Source of the DNA: an uncultured Elusimicrobia bacterium
Lineage (GTDB): Bacteria; Elusimicrobiota; Elusimicrobia; 2-01-FULL-59-12
Direction: 5' to 3'
DNA length: 64,000 bases
Assembly (NCBI GenBank): GCA_963702895.1
Contig: OY969767.1
Location: 608,001-672,000, forward strand
A program made the position numbers and the translations under genes. The notes under the pieces were generated by a model. The model did no database searches. It saw only the letters and a program-made list of their open reading frames with translations, and was not told the origin of the DNA. Numbering within the stretch: position 1 is the stretch's first letter; each line of letters opens with the position of its first letter. This document shows positions 16,644 through 41,529 of the stretch, one piece after another.

Positions 16644-16690
16644 CCGTCTCAAAAATGAATATTTTCCTGGTTTCTGTATCTAAGAGATGT
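16644..16690 (+). promoter_or_regulatory. Cassette-head motif copy 1 (CCGTCT-N6-TGAATA-N15-TATCTA)
   Basis: Identical spacing in six copies; function inferred. Confidence 0.7.
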
Positions 16691-16852
16691 GGACACTCAT
16701 TGGATCAGAAATATGTCGGTGGTCATAAGGCCCAGAGAACAGCTGGCGAAGCCGGGGGAAGAGGAGCTGGTACGGCGTGCGGGACAGTACCGCGACCCGC
16801 GCATGCCAACGATCCCATCGATGGCAGACGCCGCCGCCCAAGAGGGTCATTT

Positions 16853-17941
16853 ATGAAGATCAATTTCAACGTGCTGGTGAACCATATTTCGCGCGTGCAC
16901 CGGCATTTTCAGGTGCAGGCGGCTCAAGCGGTCAACGTTGGGCTGACACTTCGAAACTGGCTGATTGGCTGTTATGTTCGGGAATACGAGCTCAGGGGAA
17001 GCGATCGGGCCGCGTATGGTGAACGTTTATTGGCCAAACTGGCGCATCAACTCTCTCAGAGCGGAGTCCCGCGATCTGAGGAGCGTGAACTCCGCCGATA
17101 CCGTCAGTTCTTTCTGGCCTATCCGCAGATTCGGGAGTCGCTGCCGCCCGAAGCCGTCGCCAGGCTGGCCGGTGGAGCCAGGCCGGCGGCCATTCGGGAG
17201 ACAGTGTCTCCCGAATCTCATCTTCCAGGAAAGGCCATGCTTGAAAGATTCTCGTTTTCCCATTTCGTCGAATTGCTTCAGCTCGAAGAGCCTCTTCAGC
17301 GCGCTTTTTACGAAGTCGAAGCGTATCGCGCACATTGGTCTGTTCGGGAGCTCAGACGTCAAATCGCCAGTCTGTATTACGAACGCTCACGACTCTCACA
17401 AGACAAGAAAAAGCTGGCCCGGCTTGCCCATGCCGGGGCCGAGCGGCCTGACCCCGCCCTGGCCATCCGTGATCCCTATATCTTTGACTTTCTCGGATTG
17501 AAGGCCAAAGAGGCGCTGACGGAAACCGCTCTTGAGGACTCGCTCCTGGGCCGCTTGCAGGACTTTTTGCTGGAGCTGGGCAGAGGTTTTTGCTTCGAAG
17601 CACGGCAGAAGCGGATCGTCATCGGCGGCGACTCTTTCTTCGTCGACCTGGTCTTCTATCACCGGATCCTGAAATGCCACATTCTGCTCGAACTCAAAGT
17701 CGATGACTTTCGACACGAGCATCTGGGGCAGCTCAATACCTACGTGAATTGGTTTCGCCTTCATGAAAAAGCGCCCGGCGACAATCCGCCTCTCGGCATC
17801 CTGCTTTGTACGAAGAAAAACGAGGCCTTGGTGGAATATGCCTTGGCCGGAATGGACAACCGGCTCTTTGTCTCCAAATATCAGCTCCAACTCCCCAGAA
17901 AAGCGGACATCCAGAACTTCCTCAAAGAGCAGATCAAGTAG
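16853..17941 (+). CDS. YhcG/DUF1016 PD-(D/E)XK nuclease family protein
   Basis: AVN..LTLRNWLIG, WSVRELRRQI, RDPYIFDFL, FLLELGRGFCF, DLVFYHRIL, ELK, DNPPLGILLC. Confidence 0.92.
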   Translation: MKINFNVLVNHISRVHRHFQVQAAQAVNVGLTLRNWLIGCYVREYELRGSDRAAYGERLLAKLAHQLSQSGVPRSEERELRRYRQFFLAYPQIRESLPPEAVARLAGGARPAAIRETVSPESHLPGKAMLERFSFSHFVELLQLEEPLQRAFYEVEAYRAHWSVRELRRQIASLYYERSRLSQDKKKLARLAHAGAERPDPALAIRDPYIFDFLGLKAKEALTETALEDSLLGRLQDFLLELGRGFCFEARQKRIVIGGDSFFVDLVFYHRILKCHILLELKVDDFRHEHLGQLNTYVNWFRLHEKAPGDNPPLGILLCTKKNEALVEYALAGMDNRLFVSKYQLQLPRKADIQNFLKEQIK

Positions 17942-17946
17942 AAGCC

Positions 17947-18241
17947 GATCACCAGCCTGTCCGCCGTCTCCGCCCCGACTGGAAGAAGTAACGGAGTAAC
18001 GGAGTAACGGAGTATCGGAGTAACTTCAGGATCGCAGTAAGGGCCGTGACTCCGATACGCCGATACTCCGGTACACCGTTACGCCTTCAGGCTGTGACTC
18101 CGATACCCCGGTACTCCGTTACGCCGGTTCCCCGTTTCGCCCCGTCTCCCCGTCTCCGCGTCCCCGCGTCTGTCGTCTCCGCCGTCCGTTAATTCCGCCA
18201 CCCGTCTATTCCGCCGCCCGTCTATTCCGCCGTCTCCGTCT
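17947..18241. repeat. Degenerate 8-bp tandem repeat block (GTAACGGA, CTCCGATA, CCCCGCGT, CCGTCTAT units)
   Basis: Direct reading; inverted near-copy at 41560-41891. Confidence 0.9.
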
Positions 18242-18282
18242 GAAGAATGAATATTCCCCGGGTTTCTGTATCTAAGAGATGT
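18236..18282 (+). promoter_or_regulatory. Cassette-head motif copy 2
   Basis: CCGTCT gaagaa TGAATA N15 TATCTA agagat. Confidence 0.7.
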
Positions 18283-18313
18283 AGGCATTTTTACATCTTG
18301 GAGGATGCAGGCC

Positions 18314-18784
18314 ATGAAAGAACCAAAGACGCTCAGGCTGTCTTTGGATACCACGATTCCGAACTTTGTCTACGCATTGGACTCACCGGAACGAATGATG
18401 ATCACGAGACGTTTTATGCTGCTGAGGCGATCTCAAGCGTATGAAATGGTGATATCGGCCATCGTGATTGATGAATTGATGCGGGCGCCGGAGTCCAAGA
18501 GGGAGCTCTTGTTAGCGCAAGTCGACGGCCTGGAGCTGCTTCAGATCACGCCGGAAGCGGAGCATCTGGCGCGTCTCTATATCAGAAACAAGATCTTACC
18601 GGCGCGCTCCCTGGATGACGCGCGACACGTTGCCGTGGCGACCCTTCACCGAGTGGATGCGCTCGTGAGCTGGAATTTCGGGCATCTGGTCAATGTCCGA
18701 CGGACGATGGCCATCCATGAGCTCCATGCGCTGATGGGACTTCATATAATTAATATCGTGACGCCAGAGGAGGTTCTGGGATGA
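18314..18784 (+). CDS. PIN-domain (VapC-like) protein
   Basis: LDTTI, VIDEL, DARHVAVA, LVSWNFGHL, IVTPEEV. Confidence 0.9.
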   Translation: MKEPKTLRLSLDTTIPNFVYALDSPERMMITRRFMLLRRSQAYEMVISAIVIDELMRAPESKRELLLAQVDGLELLQITPEAEHLARLYIRNKILPARSLDDARHVAVATLHRVDALVSWNFGHLVNVRRTMAIHELHALMGLHIINIVTPEEVLG

Positions 18785-18930
18785 CAAAGATCGATAAATC
18801 ACTTCGCGAAGTCAGGCGTTGGAAGGCCAAAGTCTCGGCGAAAACAAGAAAAATGAAACCCGCCGAGGTCGTCGCGTATTTCCGTTCCGTCACAGCGCAC
18901 TATCGCCACCGCAAAAAAAGCGTAGCCTAG
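18781..18930 (+). CDS. 49-aa small protein overlapping PIN stop, probable antitoxin partner
   Basis: ATGA overlap; MTKIDKSLREVRRWKAKVSAKTRKMKPAEVVAYF... Confidence 0.6.
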   Translation: MTKIDKSLREVRRWKAKVSAKTRKMKPAEVVAYFRSVTAHYRHRKKSVA

Positions 18931-18949
18931 CGATATCAAGTCATCAAGG

Positions 18950-19090
18950 CCGTGACTCCGATACCCCGGCACTCCGATACTCCGATACGCGCGTCTCCCC
19001 GTCACCGCCCCGCCGCCGTCTCCGCCCCTCGCTGTCTCCGCCGTACATTCGTTCCGCCGTCCGTCTATTCCGCCGTCCATTCGTTCCGCG
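18950..19090. repeat. Degenerate 8-bp tandem repeat block
   Basis: GTGACTCCGATACCCCGGCACTCCGATACTCCGATAC...CCGTCTATTCCG. Confidence 0.85.
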
Positions 19091-19289
19091 GTGATCCGGT
19101 GCCTGGCACAGGGCTCCAATCTCACCCACCGATCAAACTCGTCATAGGATGACGGGCGGCGCGGGGGGATAGACCCTCTGCCTCCGATTTCGGGCCTCAC
19201 CGCCTCAAAAAGGCGCGCTCTGTTTTGAGTTTACGTCGTTTTAACACTGCCGTCACAGAAACGCAACGCAAGCCTGTCATACTGGGGTC

Positions 19290-19394
19290 ATGAAAACATG
19301 GTTTGCCAAACAGAGCTATTTAACGCCGCGTGATATTGCGATTCGCTTTTTCATCGGCTTCGCGATAGGCATGCTGTACCTTTCGCTGAAATAA
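19290..19394 (+). CDS. 34-aa putative single-TM peptide
   Basis: MKTWFAKQSYLTPRDIAIRFFIGFAIGMLYLSLK; CATACT 6 nt upstream of ATG. Confidence 0.35.
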   Translation: MKTWFAKQSYLTPRDIAIRFFIGFAIGMLYLSLK

Positions 19395-19477
19395 CCGCCC
19401 GCCTCTTCCGCCATCCTCGCGTGGGCCGGACAGGCCACGCGAGGACCTACTGCCGGCCGAACCGATCCGTAAGGATG

Positions 19478-19589
19478 CGGCGCCTGTCACAAAGCTCAAA
19501 TCGATTGCCTTATTTCCCGGTATGACCATTCCCTTTGGGCCCAGCCTGGCACGACAGACGCGCTATCTTCTCGCTCGGTGACAGGCACT
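19478..19589 (+). repeat. ~112-bp cassette-head repeat, copy a
   Basis: CGGCGCCTG(G/T)CAC..TCGATTGC..CCCTTTGGGCCCAGCCTGGCACG..CAGGCRCT; four copies. Confidence 0.9.
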
Positions 19590-19643
19590 GTATGTCCACT
19601 TCCGGTTCACTTTTCGGCGTATAATTATCATCGCGTCTTGAAA

Positions 19644-20030
19644 ATGATGACCCCTCTGCAAATCGTTGAATGCGCCGGACTTGCTATCCTGGGCGTCTTC
19701 GGGCATGAACTCCTTCTACGACGAAAAGCAAAAGAAGAACAAGGTCTAACCCCTGTCTTTGATTATCGGCTTGAGCCTGGGAGGTTGAATGGTCGCGTTA
19801 CTTTTTACGAATCACTTGTTGTTCGTTCCAACTTTCTGCAGCAGGTGTTTTCCTACGAGAAGATTAAATCGGTGAAGTGTCGTGGTACATTCATTCATGA
19901 GATCGTGATTCAATATGTTGATGGTCAACATGGACTCATCTCTTCCATGTCGATTATCGAAAACAATTCCAAACAGCGTGAGCAGCTGCTCGTTTTCCTC
20001 AGGCAAAAATGCCCCGCAGCGTCAGTTTAA
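19644..20030 (+). CDS. Hypothetical protein, N-terminal TM plus beta-rich domain (copy 1)
   Basis: ORF with upstream TATAAT; near-identical copy at 25470-25856. Confidence 0.7.
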   Translation: MMTPLQIVECAGLAILGVFGHELLLRRKAKEEQGLTPVFDYRLEPGRLNGRVTFYESLVVRSNFLQQVFSYEKIKSVKCRGTFIHEIVIQYVDGQHGLISSMSIIENNSKQREQLLVFLRQKCPAASV

Positions 20031-20057
20031 CCCGATAAGACCCGAAAAGGGTCAGTG

Positions 20058-21296
20058 TGGAATTGACCCGGTTTGATGGACACACGAAAGGGTAACTAAA
20101 ATGACCCTGGAGGTGTGTGATGAAGCAGAACGAACGGAAGAAGTGGAGCCGGGAATTCAAGCTGGAGGCGGTACGTCAGACGCAGGTGACGGGCAGGTGT
20201 GTGGCCGAGGTAGCGCGGGCGCTCGAAATTCCCGTCCATCAGCTGTATCGATGGCGGACGGAAGTGGATCATAAGGAAAAGGAAGCGTTTCCTGGATCTG
20301 GCCATGAGACGCCGAACACCGAGCTGGAAACGCTGCGTCGAGAGAATAAACGTCTGCGCGAAGAGCGCGAGATTCTAAAAAAAAGCCTAATCTTCTTTGC
20401 CAAGGACGCATCGCTCGGTACCGATTCATCGGGGAACACCGGCACGAGTTCCAAGTGAGCGTGATGTGCGACGTGCTGGAGGTGTCGCGGTCTGGCTATT
20501 ACGCCTGGCGCAGCCGGCCGATCAGCGCGCGCCAGCGTGCCGATGAGGCGCTCGTGAGTACTATTCGAGACGTTTTCCGGAAGAATCGAAAGGTTTACGG
20601 AAGTCCGCGGATTCATGATGCGCTGAAAGACCAGGGAATGCGGCTGGGTCGCAAGCGCGTGGCGCGCCTCATGCGGCAGAACGGGATTGTGGCTGAGCCC
20701 TATCGCCGGATGAAGTGGCGATGGTCGTTTAAGACCGCCCAAGCTGCCGGCAACTTGGTCCAGCGGCAGTTTGCAGTGAGTCAGCCGAACCGGATATGGG
20801 CCGCGGATATGACCTCGTTCTGGACAGGATCAGGCTGGGTGCATTTGGCGATTGTGATGGATCTTTGTTCGCGGCGTATCGTCGGGTGGTCGATGCACGG
20901 TCAGATGACGGAACGCTTGGTGGTGGATGCCCTTGAGATGGCGGTGCTGAGTCGCCAACCGACGGGACCGTTGGTGCACCATTCGGACCAGGGAAGCCAG
21001 TATCAAAGCCGTCTGTTTCAGGGAAAGCTTAAGGAACATGGAATTCAGCTGAGCATGAGTCGGCGCGGCAATTGCTGGGACAACGCGGTCGTGGAGAGCT
21101 TTTTCAGAACGACAAAGCAGGAATTACAGAACGACGCCCGATTCAAATCACGAGAAGAAGCTCGAACACAGCTATTTGACTATATCGAAGTGTTCTACAA
21201 TCGGCAACGGAAGCATTCAACGCTCGGGTATCTATCGCCCGCGCAGTTTGAATCAAATTTACCTATTCCTGTGTCCACAAAAGCGGGGTAATTCCA
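20058..21296 (+). mobile_element. IS3-family insertion sequence, 1239 bp, 3-bp target duplication GTG
   Basis: IRL TGGAATTGACCCGGTTTGATGGACAC, IRR(rc) TGGAATTACCCCGCTTTTGTGGACAC; empty site visible at 25881. Confidence 0.97.
20120..21291 (+). CDS. IS3 transposase OrfA/OrfB joined by -1 programmed frameshift at A8G (20377-20385)
   Basis: OrfA HTH (REFKLEAV); OrfB VSRSGYY, WAADMT, HHSDQGSQY, DNAVVESFF. Confidence 0.95.
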
Positions 21297-21357
21297 GTGT
21301 TCGTATTTCACATTTGAATCGAGCGGTTCATTCGCCAGCGGCAATGCCTTGAGTATA

Positions 21358-21469
21358 CGGCGCCTGGCACAGACCCCCAATCGATTGCGTTGTTTCCCGG
21401 TATGACCATTCCCTTTGGGCCCAGCCTGGCACGACAAACGCGCTCTATTCTCGCTCGGTGACAGGCGCT
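21358..21469 (+). repeat. ~112-bp cassette-head repeat, copy b
   Basis: Homologous to 19478-19589. Confidence 0.9.
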
Positions 21470-21511
21470 ATTATTCGGAACCTTTCCAAGGAAGATATAA
21501 TCGTTGTCTAA

Positions 21512-21967
21512 ATGCTTAAAGAAGTCCTCGCCATCGCATCGTGGCTATCCGCGCCGGTCCTATTCATCCGGGTCTGCTATTTCATTGTTTGGCAAACAAC
21601 CTCGGGTGTGCCTTCGCGGCGGGAAAGTCTTCTTTCGATGGGATTTGTGATGAGCGCATTTATTCTTGGTGCCTTGATGAGTCCGTTCTTTTCTATCAAA
21701 CCAGATGAGGAAGCTGCGAAACGGCGGTCAACCAACATGCGGCTATGGTTAGCCGGCATGGTCTATGGTTTTGTTTATTCCCTGATATGGAGCACTCTTC
21801 TGATCAAGAACACCAGTGACTCCGACTGGGGCCAAGGCGCCGGGATGGTCTGGATAATGTTTCTTGGTCCGTCCTATGCGGCCGGTTTCACTCTGTTCTA
21901 TGGGGTTTGGCCTTTTATTTCGTGGCAATGGAAACGATTCTGGCGGTCTGAGAAGGGCGGTCGTTAA
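21512..21967 (+). CDS. Hypothetical 4-TM membrane protein
   Basis: Hydrophobic ORF with upstream TATAAT. Confidence 0.65.
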   Translation: MLKEVLAIASWLSAPVLFIRVCYFIVWQTTSGVPSRRESLLSMGFVMSAFILGALMSPFFSIKPDEEAAKRRSTNMRLWLAGMVYGFVYSLIWSTLLIKNTSDSDWGQGAGMVWIMFLGPSYAAGFTLFYGVWPFISWQWKRFWRSEKGGR

Positions 21968-22084
21968 TCCTGACTAGTCACGAACGTTCCCAGCTGCGGC
22001 ACGGCGTTCGACCTCGCGCTTACCGGCTGGACGCTCCGCCCGCTGCTGCAGATACGGCTTTAAACGGCGCTACGGTGAGGGTCG

Positions 22085-22330
22085 CCGCTTCTGGAAAAAG
22101 TAACGGTGTAACGGGGTAAATGCTGTGACGCCGATACTCCGGCACGCCGGCACGCCGACCCGCCGGTTCGCCGCGTCCCCGCGTCTCCGCGTCTGCCGTT
22201 TCGCCGACCCGCCGACCCGCCGGTTCGCCGCCTCGCCCCGTCTCCGCGTCCCCGCGTCTCCGCGCCTGCCCGCCGCGCCGTAGTGGCGGGTCCCCGCGCC
22301 TGCCCGCCATGCCGTAGTGGCGGGTCACCC
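22085..22330. repeat. Degenerate 8-bp repeat block with two nested 26-bp CCTGCCCGCC..GGCGGG palindromes
   Basis: Direct reading; nested units at 22265-22290 and 22299-22324. Confidence 0.85.
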
Positions 22331-22570
22331 CTCCCACCCCCACCCCCTCCCTCCCCTGCCAACCGACTATAAATAGATGTAAAATCAGCGAGATTGCGAC
22401 GGCGATAAAGAGTAGCCTGGTAGACTACAGCGCACCTCCGCTTTTATCGAACGCCATACGGTCAAGCCGGAGCACTACTTGCGCTGAGTGAACCCCGCGG
22501 AGGCACAAATCTGAAATTTGGCGAATTGAGCCCACAATTCAGAGCGTAAGATTTATCCAAGGAATTGAAT

Positions 22571-22753
22571 ATGCCACGACCCAGAAAAGGCAAAGAAATG
22601 AAGAATGGCAATGGCGCCACGTTAGGCTTTGAGGAGATGCTTTGGCGGGCGGCCGCCAAGATGCGGGGGCTGACCCACCGGCTCGAAAGCCAGTTTTCAG
22701 AAGGGCGAAAGCTGGAAGAGCAGATCAGAAAGAATCTGGCGGGGATACACTAA
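22571..22753 (+). pseudogene. Internally collapsed type I HsdM remnant (N-terminus fused in frame to C-terminus)
   Basis: NGATLGFEEMLWRAAAKMRG resembles HsdM N-terminus; LTHRLESQFSEGRKLEEQIRKNLAGI resembles HsdM C-terminus. Confidence 0.75.
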
Positions 22754-22755
22754 AC

Positions 22756-23406
22756 GTGTGGTATCTCTTTCTGGATGAAAGCGGCGATTTGGGCTTCGAT
22801 TTTGTCAATAAGAGGCCATCCCGATATTTCACGATCTGCGTTCTGGCAACGGCCGACCCGGGGTGTTATCACGCGCTTCGCAAAGCGATCAAGAAAACCC
22901 TGCGGCGCAAGGTAAACTTGGGCGGCCGCGCGACACATTTAAAGAACGAAATATAGGGAACCGGTACAACGATCGGCGCCAAACGGCATTTCTACCAACA
23001 GGTTGAAGGCTTACGCTTTGGCATTTACGCACTGACGCTCAATAAGCGGCGGGTTTACGAATACCTGACTCAACGGAAGGACCAGGTTTACAACTTCGTT
23101 GCGCGAAAAGTTCTGGATCAAATTCCTTTTGAAAAAGCCAATACGGAAGTGTACTTGGCTGTCGACCGCAGCAAAGGGAAGGCGGAAATTCGCGATTTCA
23201 ACACGTATATTTTCCGTCAATTACAAGGACGCCTCGATCCCAAGGTCGTCTTGCGCATTGACCATTTAACGGGACCAGAAGAACCGGCGCTGCAAGCAGC
23301 AGACTTATTCTCCTGGGGAATCTTTCGAAAATACGAGAAAGACGATTCAGCGTGGTTCGATAATTTTCGTGACAGGGTGAGGTTTGATGAGATCTACCTG
23401 GGATAA
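22756..23406 (+). pseudogene. DUF3800-family protein with one in-frame TAG at 22954-22956
   Basis: YLFLDESGDLG, NEI*G (expected E-x-K-G), LQAADLFSW; both halves in same frame. Confidence 0.85.
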
Positions 23407-23503
23407 AAAAAGAAGGAGCGCGCCTCTTAGGCTCGTGATCCCGCGATTATGGCCCTCGATTGAGGGGAACATCGCAGGCACCTAAGTTGGACTTACCGCT
23501 CCG
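23405..23503 (-). ncRNA. Candidate DUF3800-associated structured RNA transcribed convergently
   Basis: Nested stems, own sigma70-like promoter, U-tract after closing stem. Confidence 0.6.
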
Positions 23504-23508
23504 ACATC

Positions 23509-23537
23509 AGTATAACACACACGCGCGACGACAACAA
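23509..23537 (-). promoter_or_regulatory. Sigma70-like promoter TTGTTG-N17-TATACT with extended -10 TG
   Basis: Read on minus strand; points into the 23415-23502 hairpin. Confidence 0.6.
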
Positions 23538-23650
23538 CAGGAAGTCGATTGCGGTAATGGCTAATTCGAATTCATATCTATATTTTGAGGTAATTCGCTG
23601 CGTTGCAGTGGCTGCCCCAAAGTCTTTGGAGTGTCCGGCATGAGCGATTC

Positions 23651-25261: not shown

Positions 25262-25304
25262 GCGTCCCGGGGGCACTTGTTCAACTGAAAACAAGATCTC
25301 GGGA

Positions 25305-25415
25305 ACGCCCGGCACATCCCTCCAATCGATTGCGTTGTTCCCCGGCATGGTCCTTTCCCTTTGGGCCCAGCCTGGCACGACAGACGCGCTATCTTCTCGC
25401 CCGGCGACAGGCACT
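25305..25415 (+). repeat. ~112-bp cassette-head repeat, copy c
   Basis: Homologous to copies a, b, d. Confidence 0.88.
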
Positions 25416-25469
25416 GTATGTCCACTTCCGGTTCACTTTTCGGCGTATAATTATCATCGCGTCTTGAAA

Positions 25470-25856: not shown

Positions 25857-25941
25857 CCCGAAAAGACCCGAAAAGGGTCAGTGTTCGTATTTCACATTTG
25901 AATCGAGCGGTTCTTTCGCCAGCGGCAATGCCTTGAGTATA

Positions 25942-26053
25942 CGGCGCCTGGCACAGACCCCCAATCGATTGCGTTGTTTCCCGGTATGACCATTCCCTTT
26001 GGGCCCAGCCTGGCACGTTAAACGTGCTCGATTCTCGCTCGGCGGCAGGCACT
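25942..26053 (+). repeat. ~112-bp cassette-head repeat, copy d
   Basis: Homologous to copies a-c. Confidence 0.9.
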
Positions 26054-26730: not shown

Positions 26731-26803
26731 GCGTATTCCACCCTGGCAGTGGCGACACCCCAAGTGAATAGGCTGCAGCCGAACGTGTAGTACCATATTA
26801 GCG

Positions 26804-33419: not shown

Positions 33420-33479
33420 GTATCGATGGGAGATAACAGGGGTCTGTCCCGATATTCTATAGAGAGAGGGAAAACAACT

Positions 33480-33989
33480 ATGAGCGAAAATGAGAATATC
33501 CTTGAACAATACAGGCTTCTTTATGACCGAAATTGGCGTTACAATGACCTTCTTTGGAAGAACTTCCTAGCCTATGGAACTAGCTGGGCTATTCTTGTTT
33601 CCCAAGCGCAAAGCTTAGACATCCTTCGTAATAAACCATGGCCAGGTCTTGTGGTCGGTGTTATCACTTATATGCTGTCGACACTTCAGCTTAGTTTTGT
33701 TTCTGGCTTGGGACGAGCTGTTGTCCGTATTGTAAGGTTTGAACAAGAAAACAAGTATAAGCTGGTGACCCGTAATCCCACGTGGACCACTGGTTATGGT
33801 GCTTATGCAATTGCTGCCATAAGTATGACGATCTCCTCTGCTTCGTTATGTTTCGTCAGTAGCTATTTTATTAACGGATATTTCTTATGCCTGCCATTAA
33901 CAGTAATAATTCTTTGTATATCTAGCGTTTTTTTCTACAAAATATTTACAGTCCAATCTGATGTTGATCCAAAGGAGCCAAAAGTTTAA
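33480..33989 (+). CDS. Hypothetical low-GC multi-TM protein
   Basis: Hydrophobic ORF downstream of hsdR. Confidence 0.6.
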   Translation: MSENENILEQYRLLYDRNWRYNDLLWKNFLAYGTSWAILVSQAQSLDILRNKPWPGLVVGVITYMLSTLQLSFVSGLGRAVVRIVRFEQENKYKLVTRNPTWTTGYGAYAIAAISMTISSASLCFVSSYFINGYFLCLPLTVIILCISSVFFYKIFTVQSDVDPKEPKV

Positions 33990-34289
33990 AAGCGGTGCCT
34001 TCTCTGAAAAAAGTCAAGTGAACTCCTGTAGAGCCGATAAAGAAAAATGGGAATGAGTCTTCTCTCCATCCGTCAGACGTCTGGCGGATACGATGAAATC
34101 CATCCACAATGCGAATAGTGCCAGTCGCGGCGGCGGGGACGGACCGGCAGGAGCGTAAGGCGGCTCGCCGGAACATCGCCCCATCCATCTTTTCTCCTCC
34201 GTCTTTGTTTTATAAGCTTACCACCGCCAGCCGACGGGCCGGGGTTTGCGGCCTGTCGCTGAGAATTGACCTCAAGGGAGGAGAACGTC

Positions 34290-35516
34290 ATGCCCACCGC
34301 GCCTGTCGCGACAACCACGATCGCCATCGACCAGATTCACCCCAACCCGAACCAGCCCCGGCAGTTTTTTGATCCGGAGGCCATCGAAGATCTCAAAAGA
34401 AGCATGACCGAGCGTGGACTCATCAATCCCATCTCGGTTGTGAAATCCGGGGAATGGGACTACACCATCATCGCGGGCGAGCGCCGTTACCGGGCCGCCC
34501 GGGAGCTGAAGTGGGACGAGATCGATTGCCGGATCTGGCCCAAAGAGACCAGCCCCGAAGAGGTCGAGCTCATGGCCATGGTGGAAAATGTCCAGCGGAC
34601 GGATTTGAAGCCGCTCGAGGTTGCCAAAGGCTATCAGCTCCTGTCCCGGCCGCCGTTCAACATGACTCAGACAGCGATTGCCCAACAGGTCGGGAAAACG
34701 CAGCAGGCCATCCAGCAATATCTCGCCATCGCCAATTTGGACCCCAAGGTCCAGGAAAATACAAATCGATTTGTATTTCTTGGACTGGCGCATCTTCTGC
34801 AGATCAGCCGGCTCAAAGACCCCGGCCAGCAACTGGAGATGATCGAGCAGGCCGGCAAGAACGAGTGGTCTGTGAAGGAAATGACACGAAAAGTCGATTC
34901 GATATTAGATGTGAAAGAGAGCGGCAAGGTTCGGCTGGGGATCAACGTCGCGCCGAAGGATCCGCTGGCGGGGGTATGGGAAGCTGTCCAAGGTAAGCCG
35001 GACTTCGCGCCGGAGGTGCTCTGGGAAGTGGACTATAAGGCTCATCCACTGACACCCAAGGCAAAGCGTGACGGGCAGGATGCTCTCCGCGGTTGGAATT
35101 TCTTTGTGATGGTTCCTGCTGCCGAAAGCTTCCAAGCAACATTGGCCACGTGGTTTGCACAAATGGCCAAGGCGCTCCAGGGCCAGAAAACGGAGTCGCT
35201 CGTGCCGGAAGGGGTCAAGCTCGAGCAGGAGTTGAACAGCAAGATGCGTGACATCATGGGAATGGCGGCCCAGCATCCTCAAGGAGAGACTTCAAGTCCT
35301 GCAGGGGGTCCGAGGCTGCCGCGGACCGCGCAGGAGGAGCGGGAGCTCGAAGCGATCGCGGTCCGCGGAACCCCCAAAGACGTGTATGCCTGGATCTACG
35401 GCCCGGAGAGTTTCATGACCAAGGCCGTGCCGTTTGCCACCTGGGAACAATCCGGACAATCCCCGCAGGAAGGTCTCAAAGCCATCTTGGACGGCATCAA
35501 GCGGGTTCGGGGGTAG
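34290..35516 (+). CDS. ParB/Spo0J-like protein with unrecognised C-terminal extension
   Basis: PNPNQPRQFF, IIAGERRYRAA, ENVQRTDL, HTH; no adjacent parA. Confidence 0.85.
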   Translation: MPTAPVATTTIAIDQIHPNPNQPRQFFDPEAIEDLKRSMTERGLINPISVVKSGEWDYTIIAGERRYRAARELKWDEIDCRIWPKETSPEEVELMAMVENVQRTDLKPLEVAKGYQLLSRPPFNMTQTAIAQQVGKTQQAIQQYLAIANLDPKVQENTNRFVFLGLAHLLQISRLKDPGQQLEMIEQAGKNEWSVKEMTRKVDSILDVKESGKVRLGINVAPKDPLAGVWEAVQGKPDFAPEVLWEVDYKAHPLTPKAKRDGQDALRGWNFFVMVPAAESFQATLATWFAQMAKALQGQKTESLVPEGVKLEQELNSKMRDIMGMAAQHPQGETSSPAGGPRLPRTAQEERELEAIAVRGTPKDVYAWIYGPESFMTKAVPFATWEQSGQSPQEGLKAILDGIKRVRG

Positions 35517-35829
35517 AGCGAGGCGGCCTTCCGGAGAGGCGGCCCCGTCCACCTGTGGAGTTCTAAATTGTCGGGGCCGTCCCGACCGATGAGAACATCA
35601 TTAGGAGGACGGGACGGCCATCCGGAACAGCGCCCCGCACAGCCGGTCGCTGACCGGCAGTAGGGGCAGTCCCTGCACCCCATAGGGGTGGCCGGGACGG
35701 CTCACCAGAGCGGCGGCGATAGGTAGTCTTATAAGAGACTTCCACTCGCTGACCCTCCGGAATGCCGATGCTCTGGAGTGCCGCCGTTCCGGAGTGCGGA
35801 CACCCTGGTGTCAGTCTCTGGGACTTTCC

Positions 35830-36345
35830 CTACAGGATCGAGGGATGGATGGGGCCGTCGGGGTCGGTTCTCCGCTTGTGCTTCTCAAAGTCCTGCACCA
35901 GCAGCCGGATGTCGGTCTCATGCATGTCCACCTTGCCTTCCAGTTTCTCCACGCGCCGGGCGATGGCCTGGTGAGCTAGCACCGCATGCCGCAGTTTCAC
36001 AAAGGCCCTCATAATCGCGATGTTGACCTGGATGGCGCGTTCGCTGTTCAGGACGCTCGACAGCATGGCGATGCCCTCTTGTGTGAACGCGAAAGGAGCG
36101 AACCTTCTTCCACCCCTGCCCCTGTTTGATATTCCAATTTGGAATGTCAAACGATGCCATTCCAGTACCGTCAGTTGGAACATGAAATCGACCGGGAAAC
36201 GTCCTGGGTTTCGTTTTACCGATTTGTTCAAGTTGAACGTTTCTACACCATAGAGTGCTGCTAAGTCTGAATCCAACATCACTTGTTGTCCTCGAATACG
36301 GTAGATACGGCTTTGAAGATCGTCCGGCAGAGTTGAGTCGTTCAT
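35830..36345 (-). CDS. ORF6N-domain protein
   Basis: IRGQQVMLDSDLAALYGV, RFPVDFMFQLT, FTQEGIAMLSSVLNS, IMRAFV. Confidence 0.92.
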   Translation of the reverse strand: MNDSTLPDDLQSRIYRIRGQQVMLDSDLAALYGVETFNLNKSVKRNPGRFPVDFMFQLTVLEWHRLTFQIGISNRGRGGRRFAPFAFTQEGIAMLSSVLNSERAIQVNIAIMRAFVKLRHAVLAHQAIARRVEKLEGKVDMHETDIRLLVQDFEKHKRRTDPDGPIHPSIL

Positions 36346-36364
36346 AGAGGCCTCCTATCCCTTA

Positions 36365-36443
36365 CCCCGATTCCTTCAATCACAGCTATAGGCCGGGGTA
36401 ATCCCGGCTATATCGCGCATAGCGCTTGATAGGAGGATCGGGA
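36365..36443. mobile_element. 79-bp palindromic MITE-like insertion with TA duplication inside motif copy 3
   Basis: Removal restores CATCTAAGGGATAGGAGG; imperfect terminal IRs. Confidence 0.6.
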
Positions 36444-36482
36444 TAGATGGGAAACTGTTGGAAATATTCATTCCTCAGACGG
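36444..36482 (-). promoter_or_regulatory. Cassette-head motif copy 3
   Basis: CCGTCT gaggaa TGAATA N15 CATCTA on minus strand. Confidence 0.7.
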
Positions 36483-36579
36483 AGACGGCGGAATCGACGG
36501 ACGGCGAATCGGCGGGTCGGCGACGAGGGCGAGGCGGTGACCCGCCACTACGGCATGGCGGGCAGGCGCGGCGAGGAAT

Positions 36580-36717
36580 TTAGTTTGAGTTAAAGTTGAA
36601 CAGTTCGCGGACGATGGCGACGCTGATTTTGGCGGCCTTTGAGGTGTGGAGTATGCTTTGCTCGCTGACAAACTGGCTCCGCTGCTTCCGTCGATTGAGT
36701 AAGGCGTGCGGGCTCAT
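36580..36717 (-). pseudogene. In-frame internally deleted copy of the 40456-40755 ORF6N-like gene
   Basis: MSPHALLNRRKQRSQFV...AAKISVAIVRELFNFNSN; both ends match 40456-40755. Confidence 0.85.
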
Positions 36718-36722
36718 CGAGA

Positions 36723-37067
36723 TCAGGCTGCCTTACGATGGGGTTTGAACGATTTCCTCGAAGAGACAATCTTTGCGCCTTCTGGGATGATGGCCAGGCG
36801 CGCCTTCAATAGTTTCGCGAGCTTTTCGTAAAGACCGACAAGGTGGCTGGAGTCTTCTTTCTCCAGCTTGGAGAGAAAGGACTGAGTCACATGCATGCGT
36901 GCGGCGAGCTCCACTTGGGAAATGCCCCGCATTCGCCGGAGGAGTGCGACTTGGACGGCCAGCGGCCTGTCGGCCAATTCCGCAAAGAAAGCGTCAGCAA
37001 ACTCGCGGTCTTCCTCAACGTGCTTCCATGTGTCCCTCTCAAAGGGCGATGATGTCTTTTTGATCAT
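36723..37067 (-). CDS. Xre/HigA-like HTH antitoxin
   Basis: LRRMRGISQVELAARMHVTQSFLSKLE; downstream of RelE-like toxin. Confidence 0.85.
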   Translation of the reverse strand: MIKKTSSPFERDTWKHVEEDREFADAFFAELADRPLAVQVALLRRMRGISQVELAARMHVTQSFLSKLEKEDSSHLVGLYEKLAKLLKARLAIIPEGAKIVSSRKSFKPHRKAA

Positions 37068-37429
37068 GGTTTTTGAACCTTCCCCGACAAGATATCCGCC
37101 ATGCGCCTAAACGCCAAGTCCAGATCCCTCCGAGGGGTCTTCATCGTCTTCTTCTCGATGGCGTGCAGAAGCCACAACTCCCGCCCCTTTAAACAGAAGA
37201 AAATGCGATAGGCAACACCCTGATACTCCCGTTTGAGTTCCCATAAGGGTTCATGGCCTTTCATCGGACGCACGCTGACATTGAGCCTGGCCGGCCAATA
37301 TTCCTGCAGCGTCAGGATATCCAAATCAAGCTTGGCGACCGCTTTCCTGCGTTGGCCATCATTTTTCAGCTCATCGATGAAGTCTTTGACAAACCCGTCT
37401 GTCCAGTTGGGAAAATACCCAACGTCCAT
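37064..37429 (-). CDS. RelE/Gp49 (HigB-like) toxin
   Basis: LWELK, YRIFF, LLHAIEKKTMKTP; own TTGATG-N17-TATACT promoter upstream. Confidence 0.88.
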   Translation of the reverse strand: MDVGYFPNWTDGFVKDFIDELKNDGQRRKAVAKLDLDILTLQEYWPARLNVSVRPMKGHEPLWELKREYQGVAYRIFFCLKGRELWLLHAIEKKTMKTPRRDLDLAFRRMADILSGKVQKP

Positions 37430-37504
37430 TCTGTCCGCCTCTCCAGTATATTCCATCTAAGGAATATCATCAACAGTCGATTCTTGGGGCCATCGCACTG
37501 CCCT

Positions 37505-37551
37505 CTATCCCTTAGATGCAGATAGTCAGAGAATATTCACTTCTCAGACGG
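37505..37551 (-). promoter_or_regulatory. Cassette-head motif copy 4
   Basis: CCGTCT gagaag TGAATA N15 CATCTA agggatag. Confidence 0.7.
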
Positions 37552-37664
37552 AGACGGTGAGCGGCAGACACGGGGACCCGCCACTACGGCGCGGCGGGCA
37601 GGCGCGGGGACGGGGCGAAACGGCAGACGCGGGACTCGAGACGCGGGACGCAGGACCCGGGACA

Positions 37665-37880
37665 GGCCTTCATTTGCCGAAGTCTCCCGCGGAAGAAAAG
37701 GAATTGGAAGCGATCGCGGTCCGCGGGACCCCCAAGGATGTGTACGCTTGGATCTACGGCGCGGACAGTTTCATGACCCAAGCCGTGCCGTTTGCCACAT
37801 GGGAACAACCCGGACAGACGCCCCAGGAAGGGCTCAAAACCATCCTGGCCGGCATCCGCCGGGGTGACGGCCTGAGTTAA
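37665..37880 (+). pseudogene. Diverged 3' fragment paralogous to the C-terminus of the ParB-like gene
   Basis: ELEAIAVRGTPKDVYAWIYG..SFMT.AVPFATWEQ shared with 35310-35516. Confidence 0.8.
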
Positions 37881-37906
37881 CTCGGAATCTTTTTCTGAAA
37901 GCGGGC

Positions 37907-38105
37907 GCAAGTAATTTCTGCCAGAAACAAAGCTCCCTCTTTGCCTTCTTTCTTTGAAGGCCTTTTAAAGTGTGGTAAGCGTCCTCGGTGTTCGCCCCGA
38001 CGTTTGTCGTTAAGCTGAACTCACACTTTTCTTCGTCCACATCGTCTGGACACTGTAATAGTTCGAGGTCGAGTCCCTTACGCTCAGTTTAAACGCAACC
38101 GCCCG
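37907..38105 (-). ncRNA. Candidate bridge/seek RNA region of the IS1111-type element
   Basis: Position expected for IS1111 group; contains 11/12 match to the left junction. Confidence 0.55.
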
Positions 38106-39149
38106 TTAAGATTTCGACAAGGCGACTCGACCAAATCGATACACTTTCTCTTGGTACTTCCGCTTGTTCTTTAAGCACACCCACATAATCTCTGCCATCT
38201 TTCGCGCCACCGCCACAATCGCGACTGAGGCGGTCTTCCGTGTCTTCAAACGCTGATAGAACGATCGAAAATAGGGAGACACCTGAACAGCCGTCCACGA
38301 TGCCTCAATAAACGCATAGCGCAGGTATCGATTGCAGGACGGGATCAATCCCCCGTGGTACGTTTTACCGCCTGAGCTATACGTGCTACACACCAACCCA
38401 CAGTAAGACGCAAAGCGCGAAGCCGACGGAAATCGCTCGATCTGGTCAATTTCCAGCGACATCAGGGCGCTCAAGATCTTGCCTACCCCAGGAAAAGAAT
38501 CGACAAGCTCTCGTAAGGGGTGTTCGCTTAAGACACGATCAATCCACTCTTCGGTTGCTCGGACCTGAAGCCGAACCTCATCCAACAAGGCCATATGCGA
38601 CTTGAGCAGGTGTTGATGCATCTCGGGAAGAATCAACTCCTTCAGCCACGCCCTCCCATGAGCCCCAAACAGATCGCTGCGCTTGGGCACGTCCACATGC
38701 AGCCGGTCCAGTAAATCATGAATCCGATTCTTGATCAGCGTTTGGCTTTTGACCAACCACAATCGATGTCGCAATAACGACTTCTGCTCTCGTCGGTCAC
38801 GCGCGGGAACGTGAATCATCGGCGTCATCCCTAATCGCAACAACACCGCCTGTGCCGTCGCATCAATCTTGTCCGTCTTGATGTACGAATCCGCGATCAA
38901 CCGAGTTTTGTACGGATTGGCCAACACCGGATTCATCCCGAGATCTTCCAGAATGTCATAGGCAATGCCCCAGCTCCGTCCAGATTCCAATACACTTTGC
39001 ACCGGTTCTCCTGGAGGAATCGCCTCTTTAACTTGTGCAAGACCTTCTCGCCGTGTGGGGACTTGACCTTCCCATACAATCTCGCCAGACTCCCTCATAG
39101 CCACAACCTGACAATACTTCTTGTGATGATCAATGCCGATGGATATCAT
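38106..39149 (-). CDS. IS110-family DEDD transposase/recombinase
   Basis: IGID, VLES, KTDKIDA, SFPGVG, SYCGL..SSGG, AVARK. Confidence 0.96.
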   Translation of the reverse strand: MISIGIDHHKKYCQVVAMRESGEIVWEGQVPTRREGLAQVKEAIPPGEPVQSVLESGRSWGIAYDILEDLGMNPVLANPYKTRLIADSYIKTDKIDATAQAVLLRLGMTPMIHVPARDRREQKSLLRHRLWLVKSQTLIKNRIHDLLDRLHVDVPKRSDLFGAHGRAWLKELILPEMHQHLLKSHMALLDEVRLQVRATEEWIDRVLSEHPLRELVDSFPGVGKILSALMSLEIDQIERFPSASRFASYCGLVCSTYSSGGKTYHGGLIPSCNRYLRYAFIEASWTAVQVSPYFRSFYQRLKTRKTASVAIVAVARKMAEIMWVCLKNKRKYQEKVYRFGRVALSKS

Positions 39150-39269
39150 GATTTTGGGCCTCCTGGGGTTATTAAGGTGTCTTTACCGACAGCCTTGTTT
39201 ATAACTCTCTTGAGGCCCGCTTTCATATTACGCTCGGTTCTATGGAACACCCTCGCCCGCGGAACGCCG

Positions 39270-39515
39270 GAGAGGTCGCCAAGACTGTCGGCGACTCGCC
39301 GGATGTCTGGCGAGGCGGGGGTGAGGGCAAGGCTCCGTCGAAAGATGAGGCTGTGCCCTCACCCTTTACCCTCCCACTTACGACCGTGGAACCAGCGCCC
39401 CGACAGGTCGCCAGGGGCGACCGTAGGGGCTGTCCCTCCACCCGCAGGGTGGACGGGACGCGCTATAGGAAATTGCGGAAGCGCGGGTCTCCCACCTTGC
39501 GGCGGGAGAGGGGAC
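39270..39515. repeat. Cluster of nested REP-like palindromes (CCCTCACCC..GGGAGAGGG and GTAGGGGC types)
   Basis: Several short inverted repeats read directly. Confidence 0.6.
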
Positions 39516-39568
39516 AAAAAAGTGCGGCAGGTTCAGACGGCAGGACCTGGTCAATGGAAGATTTCGGG

Positions 39569-39901
39569 CTAGCGGGTAAGGCGTTGGAAGAGAATTTCCT
39601 CGAGGTCCCGTCGGCCATCGAAGATCCCATGGACATAGACCTTCTTTCCCTGGACGCGCAGGAGGATGCGGTAGGGATCGATCACGATCTCACGATAGAC
39701 ATCAAGGCCGATGGCTTTGAGTTCAGGGACCAGCCGGCTGCGATAGGGAACGGAGGTAAGCGTCCCTACGCGCTTCTCGATTTTGCGCCACAGCCTCCCG
39801 GCATTGAGTGGATTGCGCTCCGAGACAAAGGCGACGATATGCTCAAGGTCCTGCCTGGCGGCTTCTGACCAGAGAACGTCGTAGGCCGCGGGCTCATTCA
39901 T
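39569..39901 (-). CDS. RelE/ParE-family toxin
   Basis: VLWSEAARQDLEHI, VPEL, YRILL, IFDGRRDL. Confidence 0.9.
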   Translation of the reverse strand: MNEPAAYDVLWSEAARQDLEHIVAFVSERNPLNAGRLWRKIEKRVGTLTSVPYRSRLVPELKAIGLDVYREIVIDPYRILLRVQGKKVYVHGIFDGRRDLEEILFQRLTR

Positions 39902-40172
39902 GCGACGATAATTTCTTTTCGATGAGCTGTGAAAGTTCTTTGTGGCGGATGACGCGTCCCGAGCGGACATCGGCCTCGCTTTGCGCCGTGAGTTTGAGCA
40001 GGAGGAGGGCTTTGCGGGTGAGTTCGTAGCTCTCCACGTCCTGAACGACCGCCTTCGCCTGTCCGTTCTGTGTGATGATCATGGGCCGGCGGGTGCGATT
40101 GACGGTGGAAAGAATATCCGCCGGCCGAAGCTTTAAGTCGGTCACCGACTTGATGTCACGCTGGAGATCCAT
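39894..40172 (-). CDS. Phd/YefM-family antitoxin
   Basis: DIKSVTDLK, PMIITQNGQAKAVV. Confidence 0.9.
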   Translation of the reverse strand: MDLQRDIKSVTDLKLRPADILSTVNRTRRPMIITQNGQAKAVVQDVESYELTRKALLLLKLTAQSEADVRSGRVIRHKELSQLIEKKLSSHE

Positions 40173-40234
40173 AAGAGCGCTCCTGGGTTGAGAAGGATGA
40201 GTTGGTGCTAAATAGGGTGCCATAAATAGCACCA

Positions 40235-40336
40235 TTATGCAAGCCCCATTTCCACGGAGGATCCCCACCGGCGGGCTGCCGCCGACCGGATGCGCTCTTT
40301 GATTTCGCCCAGCAATTGACCGTACGGAATTGCCAT
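40235..40336 (-). pseudogene. Collapsed YhcG/DUF1016-like remnant after motif copy 5
   Basis: AGGAGG RBS, MAIPYGQLLGEIKERIRSA (YhcG-like N-terminus), then out-of-frame PPVGIL like C-terminal PPLGIL. Confidence 0.55.
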
Positions 40337-40341
40337 CTATA

Positions 40342-40393
40342 TCCTCCTATCCATTAGATGCGAAAAGGCGGGAAATATTCATTCCTCAGACGG
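40342..40393 (-). promoter_or_regulatory. Cassette-head motif copy 5 with RBS
   Basis: CCGTCT gaggaa TGAATA N15 CATCTA atggataggagg. Confidence 0.7.
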
Positions 40394-40455
40394 AGACGGC
40401 GGAATAGGCGGACGGCGAATCGGCGGGTCGGCGTGTCAGCGACGGGCCGAGGAAT

Positions 40456-40755
40456 TTAGTTTGAGTTAAAGTTGAACAGTTCGCGGACGATGGCGACGCT
40501 GATTTTGGCGGCATTTGAGTTGCGGAGTACGCAGGATACCATCAGGATTCCACTTTCGGTGAAGTAGTACGGGTGGTGCTCTTCCAGCATGAATTCAGGG
40601 GAGGGGAACCGCGCGATATGGCGCTTGACCGTACCTCTCAGTCGCCCCAGCGAAACTCCGTAGAGTTCTGCCACATCTTTGTCGAGCGCAACCCGTTGCC
40701 CGCGGACAAAGTGGCTCCGATGCTTCCGTCGATCGAGTAAGGCGTGCGGGCTCAT
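40456..40755 (-). CDS. Short ORF6N-like protein
   Basis: VRGQRVALDKDVAELYGV, RFP, FTESGILMVSCVLRNS. Confidence 0.8.
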   Translation of the reverse strand: MSPHALLDRRKHRSHFVRGQRVALDKDVAELYGVSLGRLRGTVKRHIARFPSPEFMLEEHHPYYFTESGILMVSCVLRNSNAAKISVAIVRELFNFNSN

Positions 40756-40757
40756 GG

Positions 40758-41012
40758 TCAGGCGGCGTGGTGGTGAAGAATTTCGGAGATGAAGGTCTGA
40801 TAGGGAATACCGAAACTCTTCGCTTTTGCTTTGAGGTTGTTGAGATCGCCTTTATTAATCCGGATATTGAGCACGGCGTCTTTTTTCCGCTTTGAAATAT
40901 GCTCGGCAATGGCCCTGGCCATTTCTTCGAACGTCCCCCGGCTGACAGGAATGAATTCTGAAGCGGCCCTCTCAATCTCTCTTTCTTCCTTGGTAAGCTT
41001 CATCCGTTTCAT
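40758..41012 (-). CDS. BrnA/CopG-like antitoxin
   Basis: KKDAVLNIRI, GIPYQTFISEILH. Confidence 0.85.
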   Translation of the reverse strand: MKRMKLTKEEREIERAASEFIPVSRGTFEEMARAIAEHISKRKKDAVLNIRINKGDLNNLKAKAKSFGIPYQTFISEILHHHAA

Positions 41013-41272
41013 AGGAGGAGTCCCTTTCTGCGGTAGATGGCTGTAAACTTGCGGCTTCTGTAGGCTGTCTTCAAAAACCATTCGGCTTCGGTCTCTACAT
41101 ACGGCACGGCCCACAGATAATGCTCATACGCGAACAGCAAAATCCTCTGATGGGGCCGGCTTGGATGTTGGAGCAGATCGACCATAGGAGAGAGGGTCAG
41201 CTCCTCAAAGGACACTCCTCTTTCCCGCTTCAGCCAGTCGCTTTTGTCCGCGCTCCACCGCAGCGGCTTCAT
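41009..41272 (-). CDS. BrnT-like toxin
   Basis: WSADKSDWLKRERGVSFEE, VPYVE, FLKTAYRSRK; own TTGTAT-N17-TATACT promoter upstream. Confidence 0.85.
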   Translation of the reverse strand: MKPLRWSADKSDWLKRERGVSFEELTLSPMVDLLQHPSRPHQRILLFAYEHYLWAVPYVETEAEWFLKTAYRSRKFTAIYRRKGLLL

Positions 41273-41345
41273 CGACGGGCCTGATCAGTATACTGTAGGA
41301 CAAGTGTATATACAAGTGGATAGAGCTTGCGATTCATCGCCTTTG

Positions 41346-41396
41346 CCTCCTATCCCTTAGATGCAAAAACCCAATCTTTATTCACACCTTAGACGG
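41346..41396 (-). promoter_or_regulatory. Cassette-head motif copy 6 with RBS
   Basis: CCGTCT aaggtg TGAATA N15 CATCTA agggataggagg. Confidence 0.7.
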
Positions 41397-41529
41397 AATA
41401 TGAGAAAGAACCGGACATCCCTGGGACAGACCTCGGGCCTGTCCCTGGGTCGTAGGATTTCTCTCAACAGTGGTGAGAGTTTTGGTTTTCCGGCACAGCT
41501 TAGATACGCCGAATGGTGTCAATCGCAGC

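Follow-up and report, generated by a model that had tools for sequence, protein, structure and literature searches.

A predicted ECF-sigma promoter shared by natural-transformation genes and toxin–antitoxin, nuclease and ORF6N cassettes in a family of Elusimicrobiota

In the SigX/ComX and SigH regulons, a single alternative sigma factor co-expresses comEC, comF, dprA, recA and a pilus. Competence sigmas are described from streptococci (SigX/ComX) and from S. aureus and L. sakei (SigH) (PMC7665891, PMC3486894, PMC3364868). Here we analyze a 64,000-nt stretch (the window, G000:C1:608001-672000) of the 2.72 Mb single-contig genome of an uncultured Elusimicrobia bacterium, and a two-block motif repeated in it, GAATA-N17-TCTAA. 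G000 denotes the window's genome, other G-numbers related genomes, L-numbers individual loci and C a contig. We assign a probability of roughly 0.7 to the reading that the motif serves as the promoter of a natural-competence regulon found across the family, that a sigma factor of the extracytoplasmic function (ECF) class fused to a receiver domain (REC-ECF) reads it, and that six cassettes in the window each carry it.

Several described systems resemble parts of this one. The start-site-mapped ECF26 promoter of Sinorhizobium meliloti SMc01022 reads GAATAAAAA...GTCTAA, with transcription beginning 32 nt after the G (PMC6180224). For ECF regulation, the portions of the ECF classification that we draw on list N-terminal extensions, neighboring two-component systems and PhyR, and describe no receiver-fused working sigma (PMC7826278). 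Haemophilus influenzae places a toxin–antitoxin (TA) pair, toxTA, under a competence promoter (PMC6957337). Transformation of Micrococcus luteus depends on a Flp/Tad pilus (PMC4322843), and the YraN–ComM D-loop pair acts in transformation (bioRxiv 10.1101/2024.02.06.579203). Geobacter metallireducens carries paired hepta- and octanucleotide arrays that have been proposed as regulator sites (PMC2700814).

A fixed-spacing motif and the genes behind it

The motif has an invariant core and occurs throughout the genome. A 17-nt spacer between GAATA and TCTAA yields 37 matches in G000, and every other spacer from 13 to 21 nt yields 0–3; relatives contain two N18 variants. The first-pass annotation of the window had described a longer element, CCGTCT-N6-TGAATA-N15-YATCTA, in six copies confined to one island. 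All six match exactly at the coordinates and on the strands given there, where shuffles predict 0.02, and all face the island interior (left two copies on the plus strand, right four on the minus strand). Their spacer lengths are exact and the spacers differ in sequence rather than being as conserved as the blocks: compared pairwise, the 15-nt spacers average 0.51 identity within the six and 0.42 over all 39 genome copies. Two parts of the description fell away. Scored with a weight matrix, G000 has 38 sites above 12 bits and three shuffles have none; a broader matrix gives 39 sites above 13 bits against 0–1 in two shuffles. An island-specific element is thereby rejected. CCGTCT, carried by only 8 of 39 sites, is not a motif block but the last unit of flanking degenerate 8-bp arrays, so the three-block unit was rejected as well. 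Simple segmental duplication accounts only for copies 5 and 6 in relation to G000 890–891 kb (window 40399-41363 is 94% identical to G000 890162-891127) and for the linker at 36.4–36.7 kb. A scan of viral contigs returned 21 single matches.

The motif is likely a family-wide ECF-sigma-type promoter, with GAATA as its predicted −35 element, a 17-nt spacer and TCTAA as its −10 element. Only 2 of the 39 sites lie inside long open reading frames (ORFs), compared with 80% of random positions, and the sites, which are not palindromic, are oriented toward a downstream start. Signatures of transcription initiation follow at fixed offsets in 140 distinct sites collected from G000 and from relatives' loci. 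A pyrimidine–purine step lies 5 nt after TCTAA in 85 of these; GGAG/GAGG words peak 5–7 nt after it (14, 28 and 21 counts, against at most 9 elsewhere, overlapping words being counted twice); and ATG or GTG starts fall 5–8 nt after it in many genes, as expected of leaderless mRNAs. The predicted start has the same offset, 32 nt after the −35 G, as that of the S. meliloti SMc01022 promoter.

Most sites head accessory genes, and the remainder head a conserved core. The first gene behind the 39 G000 sites belongs to a TA pair in 11 cases, to the four-helix-bundle family in 7, to YhcG in 7 and to ORF6N in 3; two more are RAYT remnants (one recognized by eye only), two are small hypothetical genes and seven are conserved core genes. 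Accessory genes follow 32 of the 39 sites. The core units comprise recA with a XerD-like gene, comEC-nadK-recN, yraN-comM-dprA, a PorV-like operon and three conserved unknown proteins; comF and a flp-secretin-tad operon also stand behind the motif, each with one cargo gene in between.

These core genes make up a natural-transformation gene set, and their link to the motif extends across the family. The motif precedes comF in 11/11 family genomes and in 0/19 others; one match, with an 18-nt spacer, lies within coding DNA. It precedes recA in 8/9 family genomes against 0/19 others, counting only family genomes with the gene start on a contig (two truncated loci were dropped). It also precedes comEC in G000, G001 and G003 and a ComEC-like gene in G009; yraN or comM in G000, G001, G003, G004 and G007; flp-secretin(-tad), with a presumed role in uptake, in G000, G003, G004 and G007; and recQ and a PLD nuclease in G004. 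A single predicted promoter is common to comEC, comF, dprA, recA and comM/yraN, with an uptake-type pilus also under it.

Small conserved unknown proteins behind the promoter are candidates for missing uptake or single-stranded-DNA-binding parts (L054:1871-2029, L057:454-786, L060:990-1742, L343:2445-2621 and L353:1819-2031; four occur in more than one genome). An atlas search returned no function for a 53-aa regulon protein and a collar-domain lead for a 251-aa one. At locus L048 (G011:C75), the promoter is followed by a comEC-like start that runs into an XhoI-type endonuclease and a methylase.

A stress regulon could account for part of the gene list. The same promoter and sigma would then serve a LexA-independent response to DNA damage, phage or envelope stress, with the uptake genes working in repair or nutrition and the TA and nuclease cassettes kept as selected defense effectors. 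That recA, recN, recQ, the XerD-like gene and many TA and nuclease genes lie behind the motif agrees with such a response, as do the envelope proteins encoded in the sigma operon and the failure to find comEA. However, the motif is absent upstream of uvrA, uvrB, uvrC, recG, mutS, lexA and ruvB (the last with weak locus identification) and of the type I restriction–modification genes in the island, and several cargo copies are broken or reduced to stubs. A stress response would also have to include comEC, dprA, comM, yraN, the Flp pilus and, without exception in the family, comF. We regard it as improbable. The first-pass annotation had offered, as one of two alternatives, an ECF-type promoter co-inducing a defense regulon. 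Its promoter half stands on the fixed spacer, predicted start purine, leaderless starts, close match to a start-site-mapped ECF26 promoter and a co-distributed ECF whose operon the motif heads. Its defense half does not: the conserved core consists of predicted transformation and recombination genes, and the TA and nuclease genes are accessory.

The candidate sigma factor

The REC-ECF is likely the sigma factor that reads the motif, judging from its distribution, its operon and its predicted DNA contacts. G000 encodes RpoD, two RpoD-like sigmas and five ECFs, among them this 319-aa receiver–ECF fusion (G000 2625500-2626459). The fusion is found in 12 of the 61 genomes: every one of the 11 in the family and the single sister-family genome, which together are all 12 of this order, as against 0/49 others. 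The 11 family genomes hold 8–37 motif copies against 0–4 for a reversed control, and non-carriers are at background. Across 301 genomes of the phylum, the full-length fusion and a motif excess coincide in the same three only. Its gene is the last of a PorV-like/Ig/TPR/histidine kinase/REC-ECF operon, which the motif heads in 6/6 orthologous operons with the first gene on a contig (five with N17, one with N18); the motif is absent upstream of two diverged paralogue operons in G006.

Residues of the predicted DNA-binding surface fit the −35 element. At position 171 of RpoE, base −31 is selected according to the residue: Met favors T (0.63), Arg favors C (0.88) and Lys favors C (0.98), and Ser172 selects G at −34 (0.83) (PMC7776599 Dataset S3). 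Aligned to RpoE, 104 of 114 REC-ECF homologues have Met at the Arg171 position, matching the −31 T of the motif, and Ser172 matches its −34 G. The other four G000 ECFs have Lys or Arg at position 171 and are patchy in the family, and were rejected as readers. In sigma2, the code for residue 84 (Asn84) against bases −13/−12 gives a divided picture: the base before TCTAA agrees in G000, G003, G005 and G006 and disagrees in G002, G004, G007 and G009, with bases counted by eye and an uncertain alignment column.

The fusion is predicted to work as a sigma under a phosphorylation switch. The receiver Asp is kept in 114/114 homologues, and an AlphaFold model (pLDDT 90.5) has intact REC, sigma2 and sigma4 domains. 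The best NCBIfam match is TIGR02939 RpoE, below cut-off, and the closest solved sequences are 1or7 and 6in7; with RpoE/AlgU/SigW-type ECFs as its top NCBIfam and PDB matches, it is not a ComX/SigH homologue. No membrane anti-sigma gene, a trait of ECF26 systems, lies downstream, where the genes vary. A search for further divergent sigmas in G000 returned only LuxR-type helix-turn-helix (HTH) proteins. In the literature searched we found nothing on competence regulation in Elusimicrobiota or on a receiver–ECF fusion as a sigma factor, though response-regulator censuses may already note such fusions.

A 275-aa RpoS/RpoD-like sigma (L002:1012-1839; G000 908447-909274) is 95–99% identical across the family, exceeding RecA in conservation. 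Were it the reader of the promoter, the REC-ECF operon would be a mere member of the regulon. Its conservation would suit that role, and CATCT resembles the −10 elements of group-3 sigmas. But it is present in 54 of the 61 class genomes, most of them without the motif, so that its presence does not track the motif; it retains RERIRQ, the RpoD-type −35 helix; and the invariant spacer and the match of Met171 to −31 T favor an ECF. We consider this, or another sigma in its place, very unlikely. The rpoD gene itself (G000 1429362-1431136; L007, L009) appears to be interrupted by a frameshift, which is probably an error of assembly.

Cassettes, repeat arrays and the window island

Accessory families are concentrated behind the promoter. 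Within 1.5 kb downstream of a G000 site lie 8/10 four-helix-bundle genes, 7/8 ORF6N genes and 7/8 YhcG genes, compared with 1.1% of random positions. In five genomes outside the family, four-helix-bundle genes are too few for such a comparison. The literature searched yielded no paper on these cargo families together with competence, a promoter or repeats.

Relatives carry different cargo behind the promoter at one locus, as the first-pass annotation had anticipated in proposing exchangeable cassettes. At comF, the promoter stands directly before the gene in eight genomes; two different four-helix-bundle genes, flanked by 7- or 8-bp arrays, intervene in G000 and G001, and a GIY-YIG-like fragment in G006. 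Cargo is likewise inserted at flp in G000, and an ORF6N gene in G009 separates the promoter from a PorV-like/Ig operon resembling that of the sigma. The RAYT gene that precedes yraN in G001 has leader and promoter duplicated on both sides; repeat leader and promoter form a unit duplicated at cassette borders. Cassettes also stack. Five promoter-headed TA and YhcG cassettes follow one another in G006:C49 with a different repeated leader, and the window holds a tandem stack of six promoter-headed TA, YhcG and ORF6N cassettes. A remnant of its small ORF6N-like linker is seen again there, following another TA pair. Elsewhere in G000 (2035265-2039538, L311) there are three tandem 1551-bp copies of promoter plus YhcG, two of them truncated.

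The repeat arrays form a distinct family scattered over the genome, for the most part without connection to the promoter. Five window copies do abut degenerate CCGTCT-type 8-bp arrays, as first noticed, and an array lies within 300 bp upstream of 7/39 sites against 0.8 expected. G000 contains 134 tandem arrays of degenerate 7- and 8-bp units, which fall into several families and frequently come as inverted pairs; only 12 lie within 1.5 kb of a motif site. Examples in the window are 17987-18232 and 41537-41853.

The other alternative of the first-pass annotation, a landing or recombination site of a repeat-bounded cassette system, is not supported for the motif itself. We judge such a reading, with an integron-like system and incidental promoter activity, more doubtful still than a different sigma. 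It would explain the tandem stacks with a repeated leader at each cassette start, the duplication around the RAYT insert and the XerD-like gene that follows recA in a motif-headed operon. However, the motif is non-palindromic, always lies upstream of and facing a start, and heads single-copy core genes that lack cargo; start-site and Shine-Dalgarno signatures follow at a fixed offset; and the arrays behave as a family of their own. Rather than attC sites between promoterless cassettes, each cassette has a promoter-like site (no attC model was run), and no integrase lies beside the array. The last point agrees with the earlier claim that none is present, in that a scan of 43 window ORFs turned up neither a tyrosine nor a serine recombinase; the island does contain IS3-type and IS110 transposases.

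An operator for LexA or another transcription factor is the least probable explanation of all. In its favor, recA carries the motif and G000 encodes LexA, but lexA and the uvr genes lack it, lexA is instead preceded by GTAC-N4-GTAT, and the motif has the geometry of −35 and −10 elements with no dyad or direct repeat, which also rejects an SOS box. A candidate LexA box, CGTAC-N4-GTAT(G/A), occurs before lexA and at one other site (G000 1322524 and 1034908), with none at recA.

The island interrupts an otherwise direct junction: proB is followed immediately by groES in G001 and G007, the empty site (Table 1). The cargo first listed for it was largely recovered by Pfam (YhcG, PIN, ORF6N, Gp49 with HTH, Phd with ParE, and a CopG-type antitoxin). 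The supposed BrnT (41009-41272) was not; it has no Pfam match and no BLAST match to Pfam-positive BrnT. The copy listed at 40393 as heading Phd-RelE is followed first by a 19-codon stub of YhcG, intact at G000 889984, and then by Phd-ParE. An 81-bp hairpin interrupts the −10 element of copy 3. Its terminal inverted repeats are imperfect, a TA is duplicated at the insertion, and it resembles a miniature inverted-repeat transposable element, although it occurs only once in the genome.

Table 1. Features of the island, in window coordinates
Feature	Position	Strand	Basis or remark
Whole insert between proB and groES	16413..45040	.	proB-groES adjacent in G001, G007
Promoter core copy 1 (−35 GAATA, N17, −10 TCTAA)	16657..16683	+	predicted start ~16689
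YhcG (DUF1016_N + PDDEXK) nuclease-family gene	16853..17941	+	Pfam
Degenerate 8-bp arrays: inverted GTAACGG/CCGTTAC block, then CCGTCT-type leader ending at copy 2	17962..18248	.	
Promoter core copy 2	18249..18275	+	predicted start ~18281
PIN-domain gene (18314-18784) and 49-aa partner (18781-18930)	18314..18930	+	Pfam
IS3-type element (HTH_Tnp_1 + rve)	20117..21291	+	Pfam; outside promoter system
Type I restriction–modification M, S, R	28352..33419	+	motif absent upstream
ORF6N gene	35830..36345	-	Pfam
81-bp hairpin insert splitting −10 of copy 3	36363..36443	.	
Promoter core copy 3	36443..36469	-	−10 disrupted (TCTAT)
Deleted remnant of small ORF6N-like linker gene	36570..36731	-	paralogous to 40456-40766
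Gp49/HigB-like toxin (37064-37456) and HTH antitoxin (36723-37067)	36723..37456	-	Pfam
Promoter core copy 4	37512..37538	-	predicted start ~37506
IS110 element	37878..39239	-	99.8% identical to G000 416562-417923
Phd antitoxin and ParE/RelE toxin pair	39569..40172	-	
19-codon YhcG stub	40280..40336	-	original cargo of copy 5
Promoter core copy 5	40354..40380	-	predicted start ~40348, first base of AGGAGG
Unclassified 87-aa ORF, CopG-type antitoxin, small ORF6N-like gene	40456..41272	-	
Promoter core copy 6	41357..41383	-	predicted start ~41351, first base of AGGAGG
Degenerate 8-bp array block	41537..41874	.	inverted counterpart of 17987-18185 (84% over 199 bp)

The window has other repeats and a broken gene. 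At 19472-20058, 21295-21469 and 25306-26061, around the IS3-type element, 579 bp are directly duplicated (97%) and an element of 110–175 bp is present three to four times. A 69-bp unit is present in three exact tandem copies at 26524-26732, a DUF3800-like gene at 22744-23406 has an internal stop codon, and a 120-bp repeat at 49544-50004 encodes a Pro/Glu/Lys-rich region of an 811-aa protein.

A proposed competence regulon and its relation to known systems

We propose that an envelope signal activates the histidine kinase of the sigma operon, and that phosphorylation of the conserved receiver Asp would release the sigma, which would then amplify its own operon by positive feedback. The released sigma would transcribe the genes for uptake and recombination and, at the same time, all accessory cassettes that follow the promoter. 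Cassettes probably arrive on transforming DNA, and would spread and stack by recombination that depends on RecA and uses either flanking genes or the shared repeat-leader and promoter unit, a route that would need no dedicated integrase.

Several observations weigh against a competence regulon of this kind. Canonical comEA was not recognized (HHH_3 matches occur in only 3/11 family genomes), radC was not found in G000, and ssb lacks the motif. With recN, recQ and the XerD-like gene in motif-headed units, recombination repair also fits. Distribution is imperfect too. G005 has only eight copies and lacks the motif at recA and yraN, and the sister-family genome G011 has the sigma with only 4 motif copies against 1 in the control. 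Sigma and motif are confined to one clade, so that their co-occurrence counts as a single evolutionary event and is weak by itself. The residue-84 code fails in G002, G004, G007 and G009 (again with by-eye counts and an uncertain alignment column), and an ECF26-like sigma with Met171 is also present, in G001 only. The ability of these uncultured bacteria to undergo transformation is a prediction, as is the mode of cassette insertion.

If correct, the proposed regulon makes competence in an uncultured lineage open to experiment, since the promoter, the sigma with its phosphorylation site and the kinase can each be assayed in E. coli. It would also connect DNA uptake with chromosomal TA pairs and with the four-helix-bundle, ORF6N and YhcG families, which are ubiquitous but of unknown function, and bears on why such genes are scattered through bacterial chromosomes and how they move without an integrase.

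A wider and tentative extension, which we think less likely than not, is that passengers timed to competence are a general class, made up of four-helix-bundle (23S IVP), ORF6N, YhcG, RAYT and GIY-YIG genes and of many chromosomal TA genes. As cassettes headed by a promoter, these would be carried on transforming DNA, insert next to competence genes or before them, adopt the competence promoter of the lineage and act during uptake; in this family the switch would be a kinase-phosphorylated sigma. Other families offer hints. A different ECF-type site heads ORF6N genes in two other Elusimicrobiota families: among the best 30 ORF6N loci from outside the family, GGAAC-N17-CGTA stands immediately before four genes. 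It is found before yraN as well, in G019 and G052, and 27 loci of those families contain 10 GGAAC-N16/17-CGTA sites against 0.8 expected; the motif was chosen after being seen, so the count is a lead only. This ECF-type GGAAC-N16/17-CGTA lies before yraN and ORF6N in families f10, f13 and f14 (L221, L235, L397, L402, L415, L416, L418). In family f4, CCCTC(G/A)(A/G) lies upstream of both recA and ORF6N genes, a pattern scored with no control (L077, L083, L088, L392, L412, L417).

Several parts of the system have described relatives from which they depart. The promoter shares with the ECF26 promoters of S. meliloti RpoE1, RpoE3 and RpoE4 a −35 GAATA with an A/T tract, a −10 (G)TCT and an equal distance from −35 to start; the SMc01022 promoter is almost letter-identical to it, although its spacer is 18 nt rather than 17 (PMC6180224). 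Unlike in ECF26 systems, no membrane anti-sigma is encoded next to the candidate sigma, whose N-terminus is a receiver and whose predicted targets are transformation genes. PhyR, of the ECF15 partner switch, likewise joins a receiver to a sigma-like domain in one protein, but acts as an anti-anti-sigma decoy, whereas REC-ECF keeps DNA-contact residues and its operon is headed by its predicted cognate promoter (PMC7826278).

The cassettes and uptake genes have relatives as well. The arrays resemble those of G. metallireducens in being degenerate 7- or 8-bp tandem repeats paired on opposite strands; there they are proposed as regulator sites, and here they flank cassettes and supply CCGTCT (PMC2700814). 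The H. influenzae toxTA operon is a horizontally acquired RelE/HigB-type TA pair under a competence promoter and is often deleted, but it is one operon, in contrast to the 32 accessory-headed sites here, which span at least five families, some of them stacked (PMC6957337). M. luteus and the YraN–ComM pair give precedent for a Flp pilus and YraN–ComM as transformation parts, established by experiment in other phyla (PMC4322843; bioRxiv 10.1101/2024.02.06.579203); Elusimicrobiota are known here from sequence alone.

As a whole, the set resembles a competence-sigma regulon, and is not a ComX/SigH member, an integron or an SOS box. Like SigX/ComX and SigH, one alternative sigma is predicted to serve comEC, comF, dprA, recA and a pilus. 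Unlike them, it would operate in a diderm host with a Flp/Tad pilus and with no comEA found, and the predicted sigma is an RpoE/AlgU-like ECF fused to a receiver, which a kinase would switch directly.

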